Assembly: GCA_044352355.1 (NCBI GenBank)
Contig: JBILEA010000001.1
Coordinates: forward strand, 1 to 55,215
Direction: 5' to 3'
DNA length: 55,215 nucleotides
Source of the DNA: Pontiellaceae bacterium
GTDB taxonomy: Bacteria; Verrucomicrobiota; Kiritimatiellia; Kiritimatiellales; Tichowtungiaceae
In this document: piece by piece, positions 23,731 to 30,544 of the stretch
How the letters are laid out: every line of letters begins with the position of its first letter
Numbering within the stretch: position 1 is the stretch's first letter
Made by a program: the position numbers and the translations under genes
Notes under the pieces: model-generated
The model's database searches: none
Seen by the model: only the letters and a program-made list of their open reading frames with translations
What the model was told of the DNA's origin: nothing

Positions 23731-25262
23731 ATCAGAAAGAAAAAATACGCATCTTCGTCAGCTCGGTTCAAAAGGAACTTGAACTTGAGCGGGTAGCCGT
23801 CGCCAGCTGGGTATCTGCCGATCCGCAACTGGCCGATGTGTGCGAAGTCGTACTCTTTGAAAAAGAACCGCTTTCCGGCAAACGAATCCGTAAGCCCTAT
23901 CTGGAATGTCTCGAAACCTGCCAGATTTATCTGCTGATTCTGGATTGCGAATACGGAAATCCGCCGGAATTTTCCGCTACGCATGAGGAATACCGGTTCG
24001 CTTGCGAAAAGGGACTCCCCATCTTGATCTTCCTGAAAGGAAAGACCGATTACAGGAGGGAAGCAAAAACCAAAGCATTCCTGAAGGAAATCAAGGACGA
24101 CGATAACACGTATAAACGCTTCCATGACCGGCTGGATTTGGAGCCTGAATTCAGGAAAGCCCTTAACCGGGCTCTGGAAAATTTATTCGATGTTCAGATT
24201 GAATCTGAGCCAGCGGATACAGTTCCATCGGTTGAATCCGCCTCGGTATTTGAGCAGCAGGCTCTGGATATCTCCGCAGACCAACTCGATGAAACGTCAT
24301 CGGAAAAATGGCTTCGCGCAATCAAGGCGGTTCCGGAAGGACAATCCCTTTCGGATATAGAACGGCTGAATGCATTACGGCAAAAAGGACTGGTTCGGCT
24401 TGAAGGTAGCTTATTCCGGACACAGGCGTCCGGTCTGCTTTTTCTGGGCAAAGACCCGGCGGCCCGATTCCCGCAATGCCGGATTTTTGCCGATGCATTC
24501 CGGGGAACGCTTTCGGACAGCACCCCGGCGGATCAGATCACACTTTCCGGGCCAGCTCCGGTTTTGGTCGAACAGGTCTGGGAATTTGTTCAGAAAAACA
24601 CGCGTCATCCGATGCGGGTTGTCGGCATGACCCGGATCGCACTGGATGAATATCCCCGTGAGGCTGTCCGTGAATGTATTGTGAATGCCATTGCCCACCG
24701 GAACTATGAAGACTCCGCACGCCAGATTCTGGTCAAACTGTTTTCCGACCAGCTGGAAATTCTGAGCCCGGGCTCGCCGATGAAGCCGCTGACCGTGGCC
24801 AAGATACGGAAAGGAAACTGCCCTCCGTGCTCCCGCAATCCGGTGCTCGGCCAGTATCTGAATCACCTTCGCCCGATGGATCAGCGCGGCAGCGGAATCG
24901 GGCGCATGAAAACCGCCATGCTCAATCACGGACTGAATGGGCCGGAGTATGCTTTGACCGAAGGCTATTTCTGCGTCACGTTGAAGGGGCCGGGTGATGA
25001 TCTGGATTGTTTGAGAATTCCGGCGGGAGCTTCGGCGGGACTGCCGCCAGCGGTTGAGGAACAGTTAAACGCGAGACAGAAGCGGATACTTGCATACGTA
25101 TCTGAGACCGGGCTTGTCACCAGCGGGTGGTGCCGCAAAGAGTTTGATGTCACGTATAACACAGCCTATCGGGATCTTTCAGCACTGGTGGAGTTGAGGC
25201 TTCTGAATCAAAAGGGCAAAGGGCGGTCAACCCGGTATGTTTTGTTTGGAGTGGGATCGTGA
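23727..25262 (+). CDS. DUF4062 - HATPase_c_4 (RecG C-terminal-like) - winged-HTH protein
   Basis: RIFVSSVQKELELER...YG...SATHEEY (DUF4062); YPREAVRECIVNAIAHRNY, EILSPG, SRNPVL, QRGSGI (HATPase_c_4); LNARQKRIL...TAYRDLSALV...GKGRSTRY (wHTH). Confidence 0.88.
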   Translation: MNQKEKIRIFVSSVQKELELERVAVASWVSADPQLADVCEVVLFEKEPLSGKRIRKPYLECLETCQIYLLILDCEYGNPPEFSATHEEYRFACEKGLPILIFLKGKTDYRREAKTKAFLKEIKDDDNTYKRFHDRLDLEPEFRKALNRALENLFDVQIESEPADTVPSVESASVFEQQALDISADQLDETSSEKWLRAIKAVPEGQSLSDIERLNALRQKGLVRLEGSLFRTQASGLLFLGKDPAARFPQCRIFADAFRGTLSDSTPADQITLSGPAPVLVEQVWEFVQKNTRHPMRVVGMTRIALDEYPREAVRECIVNAIAHRNYEDSARQILVKLFSDQLEILSPGSPMKPLTVAKIRKGNCPPCSRNPVLGQYLNHLRPMDQRGSGIGRMKTAMLNHGLNGPEYALTEGYFCVTLKGPGDDLDCLRIPAGASAGLPPAVEEQLNARQKRILAYVSETGLVTSGWCRKEFDVTYNTAYRDLSALVELRLLNQKGKGRSTRYVLFGVGS

Positions 25263-25618
25263 ATTTATCGATAATCTATCGATCATTTTCCCGAATCTAT
25301 CGATGGGGCAATCTATCGATAATCTATCGACGTTTCGATGAAATCTATCGAAAGTACAGAAACCTGCGCTCTGTGAAATCGACCGATAATCTTCCGATTT
25401 TTTTCTCTAATCTTCCGATTTGAACTCTTTTGTATGCGGGCGAAATCGACCGATTATCGACTGATCATTCGGAATAATCGTCCGATTGGGCCGCCGGAAA
25501 TCGTTTCATAATCGTTTCACGCTGGGGCGCTAATCGTTTCATTGCTATATCCGTCAATCGGAGGGCTGCGTGAATAATCTATCACTTTTCTATCACCAAA
25601 ATGGTGGAATCTATCACA
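25262..25618 (+). repeat. array of six box-box-spacer-box modules of 11-bp direct repeats
   Basis: Modules start at 25262, 25310, 25377, 25444, 25499, 25576; boxes at offsets 0, 11 and 32 (33 in module 5); box types AATCTATCGAT, AATC(G/T)(A/T)CCGAT, AATCGTTTCAT, AATCTATCAC. Confidence 0.92.
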
Positions 25619-28087: not shown

Positions 28088-28807
28088 TCAAAGCAAAACT
28101 GCGTTTGATATTCCCGAACCGTGGGCCAGGTTGTCGCAAAACACAACGGATTTAAATTTATACTTGGGCAGCACTGTTTCCACCGCAATTCGACCCATCA
28201 GCGGAACGGCGTTGTTAGCGCCATGAAAAACGAGGTGTGGAAAGACGCCCATATTATTGAGCCCCTGTACAAGATCAGAAATCGGAAGAAATGGATCAGA
28301 AAATCCAGCGGAATATATCAACAACATTTCCTCAATGGCGTTTAGTTTTATATCGTTCCACTTGTCGGATGAAAGCCAGGGGAAAAAATTTGTTGCAATC
28401 AAAACAACCTGTGTTCGGTTGGTAGCATCCAGCGGCAGAGCCAGATCGTCATATACTTTTTTGAGGCGTCCTCGCATTTTAGTGTCGTCATACCACGGCT
28501 TTACTATGCCTCTTGATGTCCCAATTTGACCATAATTTATACCAACTGCGACGACCACCTCGGGGATAGACTCTGGGACATCACCCCCGTCGTATCTTCC
28601 AGTAGTGCTGTTTTTATTAGCGCTGTCTATGACGGCAACGACCTGATTGTATGCAATAGGATTGCCCAATACGTCTTTCAAAATGTCATTCTGGGGTTTG
28701 CACCAATCCTTACAGTGCGTGCTGAATCCTCCCGCCGGAAGTTTTGGGGTTACAATAGGGGTCGTGTTAATTCCGTCTATAATTTTTTCGAGTTCTCGTT
28801 TCGTCAT
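28088..28807 (-). CDS. hypothetical protein, UDG-superfamily-like (paralog B)
   Basis: GGAGG RBS; VAVGINYGQ, IATNFFPW, LVFHG, CDNL motifs shared with the upstream paralog; AT-rich. Confidence 0.75.
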   Translation of the reverse strand: MTKRELEKIIDGINTTPIVTPKLPAGGFSTHCKDWCKPQNDILKDVLGNPIAYNQVVAVIDSANKNSTTGRYDGGDVPESIPEVVVAVGINYGQIGTSRGIVKPWYDDTKMRGRLKKVYDDLALPLDATNRTQVVLIATNFFPWLSSDKWNDIKLNAIEEMLLIYSAGFSDPFLPISDLVQGLNNMGVFPHLVFHGANNAVPLMGRIAVETVLPKYKFKSVVFCDNLAHGSGISNAVLL

Positions 28808-28918
28808 TTCTTCCTCCGTCGTTCACCGAATTGTACCCAGACTGCCATTCGGCAAACTGTGAGTCAACATCGGGTCAGCTTCCAGTAAGACATGACCGAC
28901 TCCCTGTTCCTATAGTTG

Positions 28919-30449
28919 TTAGTCGTCTATACATCTTTGCATTTTTTTGGTGTTCCGACAGAGATCGCCCTTTTCATACCGTTTAAGTTTATTGAGCTGC
29001 TTAATATAGTCGTAGGGGAGTGAGAGGTTCGGGAGAAGTATCCATTTGTTGATTTTTCGATTTTCGATCCATAGACGAAAAAGAGCAAAAACTTCGCTAC
29101 CCATGCCGTGACCCACCCAAAGAACAGGCTGCTCTTTCTTTGATAATTCATCTGCGAGCGCGTCTAAATGAAGCCAGTCACTTGTTGAAGTGGCTCCATT
29201 AAAAGGCGGATTGTTAATCAAAAGATTTGCCCGGAGACAGGTCTCGACGTCCTGCCAGTAATCATCCGTAATCCACACGCAAAAATTTGTCATAACGAGG
29301 TGGAAATCATAATTTTTATCATAATTTGTCAATAGGCTAGGACTTGAGGCCAGACTGTATTTGTACCAGTTCACGGGGTCTTTGCGGTACGCTTCCAGCC
29401 CGCCATGCAGTTTGGTTTTCTCACCTTGAAGCCCTTGTACAACGCCGGGTGATTTTGGATCGATATCGCGCGGGCAACTGTTTGTTCCCTGAGTGTAATT
29501 TGCGCCAACAGAGACTACAATCGGAAGAGTCTCATCCATTTCCTCCAGATGAAGTGCAAAAACTTGAATTGGACAACGTGCCCCAATTGGAATAGGAAAG
29601 ATGCGTGGCCGCACACTAATGGGATCTGGCGGGGTTGGCACTTTTACTTGTCCCTCAAGGTTTTCCAGCAGGCCTTTTAACTTTGAATACTGTCGAGTAG
29701 ACATTGGGTTATCTCCTTTAGGTTTGCTTTGTATTCCCTGTTTACTCATCTCTTTCGATCTGATGAGTGTCACACTATTCAACCTTGTGAGGTAACTCCA
29801 ATGCCCCTCACAGAACCGTACGTGCGATTTTCCCGCATACGGCTCTTCAAATGTGTTCGCAAACTCCAGCTTTCACCTTCATCCGCTATAAGGTTAGTTT
29901 CCGTTTTCATAGTTTCCGGTCTCATGAACCGCCTTTGTTTCCTCTAATCTCTTCACACATCTGTCAGCCCCTTCGAGTCGGGTCGCCCCGCACAGGGCAT
30001 TACCCCTGCTACGCCTCTACTATGAGCTGATCCGACTCCCGTACATCCTTCCAGACATCCTCTCCTCTTCAGATTGTTTGTCCGTATCCCCTTGCGGGGA
30101 AGCCGTACGGGTCTCCCAAGTTCATGTAACACGCTTTCGTTTCCATACCACGGTCTCAGACCCCGGACGAGGGATGCATCGCTCACCTTGACGCGGCGCA
30201 CCCTGTTGCCTTCCAGTAAATGAACACTGTCGGCCTCATCGAAATGAAGTATTTCGGGGCTCAATCCCTTCACTTGCGTTGCGGTCTGGAAACTCCTCTC
30301 CTGTGGCTTCATCCGGTTCGTTACCTCCCCAGATGCACATTTGGTAACGGCCTGCTGGTTAGGCTTTGGCCGTGCCGGATTTTAACCGGCTGCCTGTTAC
30401 ACGCTTTGCTTGGCGCACTCATTTTAACTTCCGAATTATCTTCGTTCAT
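28919..30449 (-). CDS. hypothetical UDG-superfamily-like protein (paralog A), split by a group II intron; exons 30449-30419 and 29691-28919
   Basis: Joined exons give 804 nt in frame: MNEDNSEVKMKYSKLKGLLENLEG...; motifs VSVGANYTQ, VMTNFCVW, WVGHG, LPNL. Confidence 0.78.
29692..30418 (-). ncRNA. ORF-less group II intron (IIB-like, 727 nt)
   Basis: 5' GTGCG at 30418; domain V GAGCCGTATGCGGGAAAATCGCACGTACGGTTC (29845-29813); 3' CTACTCGAC at 29692; EBS1 TCATTT pairs with exon AAATGA; EBS2 ACTTC pairs with GAAGT; no RT ORF. Confidence 0.93.
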
Positions 30450-30461
30450 AGATACTCTTTC

Positions 30462-30544
30462 AAGGTAGAGCAAGCGTCCCGCTTGCTTTCTGTCTCCGTC
30501 AGACCCGCTGAGGCGGGAAACGAGCGGGACGCTCGTTCTACTTT
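30462..30544. repeat. REP doublet (inverted GTAG-type REPs)
   Basis: aaggtagagcaagcgtcccgcttgc ... aacgagcgggacgctcgttctacttt. Confidence 0.75.

Follow-up and report, generated by a model that had tools for sequence, protein, structure and literature searches.

As far as the accessible text of the published accounts goes, the described system nearest to the intron reported here is the IIB1/CL1 clade of group II introns, which is alike in site choice. Its members, among them Avi.groEL and EcKTE56.groEL, lie at initiation or termination codons and leave the frame of the host gene usable; the groEL stop UAA, for example, becomes UAG (PMC12584367, PMC4028801). The clade is further marked by a 5′-subterminal insertion of 300–700 nt and by a CL1 RT with a C-terminal endonuclease (PMC12584367). 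Introns of classes E and F (IIE/IIF) have a small IIB-like ribozyme and an endonuclease-less RT (PMC3753933, PMC3552965; for the classification of IEPs, see PMC3552965 and PMC5894124). The TeI3 introns of Thermosynechococcus elongatus include ORF-deletion derivatives that spread with the RT in trans (PMC2882425). Some TeI3 and other ORF-less introns sit between two ATGs, and a start at the downstream ATG is possible there without splicing (PMC2882425, PMC4424553). A 2015 review names homing sites, terminators, and attC as the three target specificities; it adds that a bacterial intron without an ORF is almost always accompanied in its genome by a related IEP (PMC4424553).

The intron and its relation to described classes

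The window, that is, the whole stretch of 55,215 nt analysed, contains a 727-nt element on the minus strand at 29692..30418, which runs from GTGCG at the 5′ end to CTACTCGAC at the 3′ end (30418 to 29692). Its 3′ exon at 28919..29691, also on the minus strand, is referred to here as the host gene. The first-pass annotation had read the element as an ORF-less group II intron, and both the sequence and the two Rfam models bear this out: group-II-D1D4-6 scores 135.6 bits (cut-off 49), and Intron_gpII scores 56.6 bits on domains V–VI (cut-off 40). The hallmarks of group II introns are present, with GUGYG...AY ends, an AGC triad, a bulged branch A, and EBS1–IBS1 pairing. A six-domain-like structure is predicted for the whole intron, with a fold z of −7.2 and 0 of 20 shuffles equally low. 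The element is a real ORF-less group II intron.

The domain I core (30151..30383, minus strand) is the part matched at 135.6 bits, and it begins at intron nt 36. EBS1, TCATTT, lies in a hairpin loop at 30218..30223 and pairs at 6 of 6 positions with IBS1, AAATGA, at 30419..30424, which contains the targeted ATG (30422-30420). EBS2, ACTTC, at 30246..30250 complements GAAGT at 30431-30427 at 5 of 5 positions, so that both of the pairings with the flank that had been proposed for this minus-strand element hold. The TCAT core of EBS1 is the complement of ATGA and is common to the relatives that target start codons. Domain V (29813..29845) has the AGC triad at 29845, again as first read, and a 5-nt GAAAA loop, while domain VI (29694..29810) is long and branched, with the bulged branch A at 29698. 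A candidate for α′, read from the Rfam alignments, is the terminal-loop sequence GGUGA, which can pair with UAACC at 4 of 5 positions. Of the RT ORF there is, as had been noted, only a remnant, a stub at 29846..29910 with an ATG at 29910, about 22 codons ahead of domain V.

The intron is colinear with a full-length, RT-bearing relative of 1992 nt (L043), to which nt 1–506 are 80% identical and nt 571–727 are 85% identical, with about 1.27 kb of ORF missing. These identities to both ends of L043 support the earlier view of a non-autonomous group II intron, derived, to judge from the alignment, by ORF deletion. The RTs of its relatives (447 and 431 aa) match RVT_1 only and end just before domain V; judged by these RTs, the lineage is endonuclease-less.

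Comparison with the IIB1/CL1 clade shows one likeness and several differences. Insertion occurs at or next to start codons here as well, in 22 of 27 readable flanks of the clade described below. However, the window intron has no 5′-subterminal insertion, since domain I starts at nt 36 and the whole intron is 727 nt, the RTs of its relatives (431–447 aa) have RVT_1 without an endonuclease, and a wide range of unrelated genes is targeted. Because two defining features of the IIB1/CL1 clade, the insertion and the endonuclease, are absent, the intron was rejected as a member of it. The ribozyme shows IIE/IIF features, namely a small IIB-like form, a 5-nt domain V loop, and α′ in a terminal loop (PMC3753933), together with the long domain VI of IIF (PMC3753933, PMC3552965); the class likeness is known here from these ribozyme features. 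Start-codon targeting is absent from the accounts of classes E and F, as far as their accessible text extends (PMC3753933, PMC3552965). The likeness to TeI3 lies in the deletion of the ORF. In TeI3, however, the second ATG belongs to the exon and there is one conserved target (PMC2882425), whereas the present intron carries its own Shine-Dalgarno sequence and ATG into many genes.

An RT-bearing relative was also sought in the same genome. Searches with PF00078 and with alignment A2 found no cognate RT in the 90%-complete, 377-contig assembly, in which the only RTs found were one on C199 and a C-terminal remnant on C54. The C199 RT is the only whole one and belongs to a full-length intron (L035) behind a hairpin and T-run. 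It is unlikely to be the helper because of that site, its long outgroup branch, and its class C-like look. In G056, an RT of the cognate type is present beside other intron copies. Movement of the deleted form would need an RT in trans, and such an RT may have carried it to two or more places in this genome, namely the start of the host gene (the C194 flank) and the start of a sulfatase gene (the window flank and C37).

Start-codon sites and the ATG in domain VI

Domain VI carries an ATG at 29702..29704 (minus strand), 13 nt before the 3′ splice site and in frame with exon 2. It is preceded by a Shine-Dalgarno sequence, AAAGGAG, at 29713..29719 on the 3′ strand of the domain. A start at this ATG would yield a 261-aa protein beginning MSTRQ. 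All 5′ ends of the intron in this genome lie directly behind ATGA. The 3′ ends all have the Shine-Dalgarno sequence together with the ATG, at 13 nt from the splice site, and that ATG is in frame with whichever gene comes next: a sulfatase gene, an aldose epimerase gene, or the host gene. Annotation is misled by this arrangement, as gene callers begin proteins at the intron's ATG (MSTRQ).

The RT of the full-length relative in G056 (447 aa) was used as the query for a survey of the lineage, so the group was not defined by the trait. Loci were gathered from genomes, plasmids, metagenomes, and viral contigs; the metagenome part consists of 79 loci from the best 80 of 594 matches, and the viral part, of 80 loci, is represented by L178–L211 only. 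In a tree of 132 distinct RTs, the trait is carried by a clade of 33 rows (SH-aLRT 86) with a 22-row core (95), and L043, the relative aligned to the window intron, lies inside the 33-row clade.

The 5′ flank is readable in 27 of these 33 loci and ends in ATGA in 19, in ATG plus another base in 2 (one with an ambiguous boundary), in GTGA in 1, and in another sequence in 5; a start codon plus one base thus accounts for the 22 flanks mentioned above. The background of ATGA in this genome is 0.44% per position. At the 3′ end, readable in 26 of the 33, there is an ATG at −13 in 21. Among the 107 loci outside the clade, only 1 of 53 readable 3′ ends has an ATG at −13, and ATG plus one base closes 2 of the 63 5′ flanks that could be read. 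Both ends could be read in 20 members: 16 have a start-codon site together with the ATG, none has a start-codon site without it, 3 are retargeted and have lost it, and 1 has it at another site. The members of the clade are kin, and these counts do not represent independent events.

An ORF of at least 100 codons continues in frame from the ATG at 19 of 25 ends, compared with 3 of 50 for the other frames. This count took ATG-bearing ends with at least 300 nt of exon, and 9 ends with shorter exons were dropped. The first base of the 3′ exon is A in 33 of 33 loci. Because the TCAT core of EBS1 matches ATGA and the first 3′-exon base is A, the sites are mostly the Met-Lys or Met-Asn starts of unrelated genes, as comparison of the flanking sequences shows; 35% of the 638 Shine-Dalgarno-led starts in this genome read ATG-AA. 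The 5-contig assembly G055 contains four whole ORF-less copies of 739–767 nt, all four of which fit, with frames of at least 383 codons. In L125, a member of the clade, the in-frame 3′ exon has a motif resembling the start of the β subunit of glycyl-tRNA synthetase, and essential genes may therefore be targets too.

Other arrangements were seen at the edges of the survey. L092, on plasmid pKAP298 of Caedibacter taeniospiralis, is a member of the clade with 61% RT identity and a Shine-Dalgarno sequence and ATG in domain VI; it lacks its 5′ end, and its frame closes after 5 codons at an overlapping ATGA. L192–L197, a related lineage on viral contigs outside the clade, are inserted directly after GGAGGT, with a purine-rich run in domain VI and the host ATG 3–6 nt into the 3′ exon, which is Shine-Dalgarno targeting rather than ATG targeting. 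L198–L207, another lineage that is viral and outside the clade, have a 5′ flank ending ACAATG, directly past an ATG, with none at −13, and their site looks, from these flanks, like a single conserved homing site.

We consider it probable that this lineage inserts one base after start codons (ATGA|A) and brings its own Shine-Dalgarno sequence and ATG, permitting translation without splicing, and that the flanks of the window are different genes, likely joined across two copies (see below). The RNP would reverse-splice into the Met-Lys and Met-Asn starts of many genes by means of the TCAT core, as in established retrohoming. Insertion would cut the gene off from its Shine-Dalgarno sequence and ATG, and domain VI would supply new ones. 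The unspliced mRNA would then be initiated at the domain VI ATG, giving MSTRQ in place of MK, whereas the spliced mRNA would give the native protein. Translation that starts at the host ATG and runs through an unspliced intron is ruled out here, since that frame stops after 31 intron codons. The spliced joint was not found in the contigs of two RNA runs, which cover the intron but not exon 2. Since domain VI carries a Shine-Dalgarno sequence and an in-frame ATG, the gene behind the intron is likely readable without splicing, and splicing likely does not gate its expression. Gating had been suggested for this locus at first, and the lineage-wide presence of a start within the intron makes it unlikely.

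The ATG is predicted to be paired in the domain VI stem, as is the GAG of the Shine-Dalgarno sequence, and the predicted probability that the ATG and half of the Shine-Dalgarno sequence are unpaired is about 0. Folding for splicing and ribosome loading would thus compete for the domain VI stem. An alternative is that the lineage does target start codons but the domain VI ATG is locked in its stem and unused, so that host genes need splicing. The predicted full pairing would fit this, as would the intact EBS1/IBS1 pairing and catalytic domains and the 6 of 25 ATG-bearing ends without a long in-frame ORF. However, the ATG is invariant while its stem partner takes four forms (CAT 21, TGT 7, TAT 3, CGT 2), and it has been lost in 3 of the 4 retargeted members with both ends read. 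It is also nearly confined to the clade (1 of 53 outside), and a purine-rich, Shine-Dalgarno-like run lies ahead of it in most members, even though the length of domain VI varies from 60 to 121 nt. We regard a stem-locked, unused ATG as quite unlikely.

Should the start in domain VI prove functional, a mobile intron could enter nearly any gene at its start, with neither loss of expression nor any need to splice. The persistence of ORF-less copies (four in G055) would then be explained, and a single helix would offer a simple test of ribosome loading against ribozyme folding. A further copy in this genome (L002, C54 11605-12310) is 706 nt long and has a domain I 98% identical to that of the window intron. 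It has lost domains II–III, keeps a remnant of the C-terminal part of an RT, has a shorter domain VI, and lies at the start of an aldose 1-epimerase gene. Although it is probably incapable of splicing, it retains the Shine-Dalgarno sequence and the ATG, making it a natural test of the replacement start.

A replacement Shine-Dalgarno sequence and ATG in domain VI is not mentioned for the IIB1/CL1 clade in the accessible portions of PMC12584367 and PMC4028801, and the trait is not described in those of PMC7306698, PMC8919778, and PMC3073962. Our literature search found no paper on it; supplementary intron tables may list members. The novelty of start-codon targeting combined with a replacement start is accordingly provisional, and what appears to be new here, likewise provisionally, is the targeting and the replacement start of the lineage rather than gating.

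The flanks of the window

Excision of the intron joins the two flanks into an open frame of 267 codons beginning at the ATG at 30449, and the first-pass annotation concluded that the intron splits a novel gene, that splicing restores its frame, and that splicing may gate a toxic or defence protein. The arithmetic of the frame holds, EBS1 and EBS2 match the window flank perfectly (6/6 and 5/5), and the host gene does lie in a defence-like island. The 267-codon frame is nevertheless not confirmed as a gene, because exon 1 is a foreign flank. In G026, a relative within the genus, the host gene is free of the intron. The G026 DNA is 92% identical to window 28841-29691, continues without a gap into C194 95-1331 at 93%, and then stays colinear through the WYL gene of C194 into C172. 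This intron-free allele does not continue into window 30419 onward. Since the empty site joins exon 2 gaplessly to the C194 flank, the native upstream DNA of exon 2 is, on this alignment, C194, which also ends in this intron.

The protein sequences agree with this. In the 90% cluster of the host protein (n = 15), MKYSKLK opens 10 members, 3 are internal fragments, and the remaining 2 are calls made in the window itself, from ATGs inside the intron. The nine extra N-terminal residues of the spliced frame occur in 0 of 10 intact intron-free alleles and 0 of 14 homologues; the MKYSKLK starts themselves were chosen by gene callers. Intron-less alleles beginning like exon 1 had been put forward as something to look for; all 10 intact ones begin MKYSKLK instead, and at the protein level the intron-less N-termini do not match exon 1. 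The ATG at 30449 is, moreover, almost without a Shine-Dalgarno sequence (predicted strength −2.4 kcal/mol, vs −12.2 kcal/mol at the C194 flank), and the intron supplies its own start. The 267-aa spliced protein is rejected, given its native upstream and the lack of any allele with the extension, and a novel 267-aa gene from 30449 gated by splicing is highly improbable.

Two features of the DNA just upstream of the intron may be mentioned. A 35-bp inverted repeat at 30462-30544 is REP-like and recurs many times, both in this genome and in its relatives. A sigma-70-like site at 30463-30435 was discarded as being at chance level (2 sites vs 1.5 expected); it would begin transcription below the ATG at 30449.

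Three intron 5′ ends (C56, C194, C54) and three 3′ ends (C56, C37, C54) are present in the assembly, C56 being the contig of the window. C194, with a 5′ end, and C37, with a 3′ end, are identical to the window copy over 94 and 96 intron nt, and C37 and C194 end 97 and 99 nt inside the shared sequence. The window's 5′ flank lies after an SSF transporter and a fucosidase, and C37 opens with a sulfatase. In a paralogous cluster on C29, the order is SSF, fucosidase, one further gene, sulfatase, and a gene 74% identical to the 732-aa ORF of C37; the C29 fucosidase is 77% identical to that of the window, and the C29 sulfatase is 66% identical to the first gene of C37. By elimination and from this paralogous gene order, the "exon 1" flank of the window most likely belongs to the C37 sulfatase. 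The pairing is based on these two arguments because a search of 33 genus genomes for the C37 sulfatase gene without the intron gave no such allele.

The comparison with G026 and C194 thus shows that C56 pairs non-native flanks from two intron copies. The join is rather likely to be a short-read misassembly across the 727-nt repeat, which we favor over recombination. Identical copies yield in-frame chimeric contigs that resemble spliced genes, as in this window. The intron contigs are deeper than exon 2 in both DNA runs examined (36.7 vs 14.4; 12.8 vs ~4), which fits a repeat but gives no copy number, and the C194 junction was seen in both of these runs. Four further runs, with about 55% of the words, may come from intron-free strains. 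Four other contigs of this assembly, C375, C104, C71, and C67 (L006–L009), share one terminus, the 3′ end of another group II-like element that differs from the present intron; the searches made did not recover its body. This common 3′ end shows that the assembly has collapsed repeats.

The window could instead be real DNA in which recombination between two intron copies has swapped flanks and placed a UDG-like gene behind the fucosidase cluster, still translatable from the domain VI start or after splicing. Exon shuffling between intron copies has been noted for TeI3 in Thermosynechococcus (PMC2882425, in its accessible portion), and since all copies share one phase, swapped flanks would stay in frame. 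However, C56 is the only assembled path across the intron repeat, C37 and C194 both break off some 100 nt into it, as contigs do at a repeat that an assembly fails to resolve, and no piece spanning the intron is present among the contigs listed for four of 21 runs (two RNA and two DNA). Genuine recombination is, on balance, unlikely, and misassembly remains our preferred explanation of the join.

A wider reading, which we put forward only tentatively and consider rather doubtful as a whole, is that a widespread, endonuclease-less lineage uses every ATGA|A Met-Lys/Asn start as a homing site, does no harm because it rebuilds the ribosome-binding site and start in domain VI, and thereby forms a switch between splicing, with the stem folded, and translation, with the stem opened, the window perhaps being an in-frame swap of promoter and gene. 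If this were true, targeting of start codons would rank as a fourth strategy next to the three listed in the 2015 review, recombination between copies would swap promoters and genes in frame, and in the window such a swap may have brought a defence gene with a UDG fold under the control of a cluster for sugar catabolism.

The host gene and its island

What kind of protein does the host gene encode? The intron-free alleles specify 258 aa, and the family comprises 109 representatives at E up to 0.001. The protein has no match in Pfam, PADLOC, NCBIfam (above chance), or PDB sequences. A structure model built from 74 sequences has a pLDDT of 89, and in a structure search with this model, UDG-family enzymes account for 7 of the top 8 titles. 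The best structure match has Z 6.9 with an rmsd of 4.4 over 155 residues, where a Z below 8 may reflect a common arrangement, and the best Foldseek match is SMUG1 (E 0.012). The model therefore points weakly to a UDG-superfamily-like fold.

Brig1 and Brig2 are similar in description, with about 260 aa, no Pfam match, a predicted UDG-like fold, and a mobile or defence-like neighbourhood. The best Z of the host protein is lower, however, at 6.9 vs 9.2 for Brig1 against family 4 UDG, a comparison made by description only, from the accessible text of these sources (PMC11078745, bioRxiv 10.1101/2025.10.29.685425). It is plausible, on the predicted structure, that the host protein is a candidate Brig1/Brig2-like defence glycosylase, and the 109-member family without a Pfam match would then be a candidate set of UDG-fold defence enzymes.

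Paralogues of the host gene flank it on both sides. The next gene (28088..28807, minus strand) is a distant one, 26% identical over 163 aa with a pairwise E of 2e-5. Tandem paralogues with invariant G-x-N, N, and W positions and a weakly UDG-like predicted fold are seen at window 28088-29691, at C194 120-863, and on C15 of G026, and they too are candidate defence glycosylases. With C194 placed upstream, there are three paralogues in a row in this genome, next to DUF1643 and a WYL regulator. The host gene and the next paralogue are each preceded by a segment of about 80 nt (window 28813-28891), and the two versions are 81% identical. In C194 and G026, where it lies ahead of the host gene, this segment is the coding tail of the previous paralogue, while in the window it is intergenic. 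The sequence of this shared segment suggests tandem duplication or cassette exchange.

The island, a mobile one, contains an integrase beside a tRNA gene, a DUF4062-ATPase, DUF2779, and DUF1643, with the WYL regulator on C194, and the G026 version has PD-(D/E)XK, HNH-like, and PIN genes. Four imperfect, ATCGAT-rich repeats of about 46 nt (window 25260-25487) are found between the gene for the DUF4062-ATPase and that for DUF2779.
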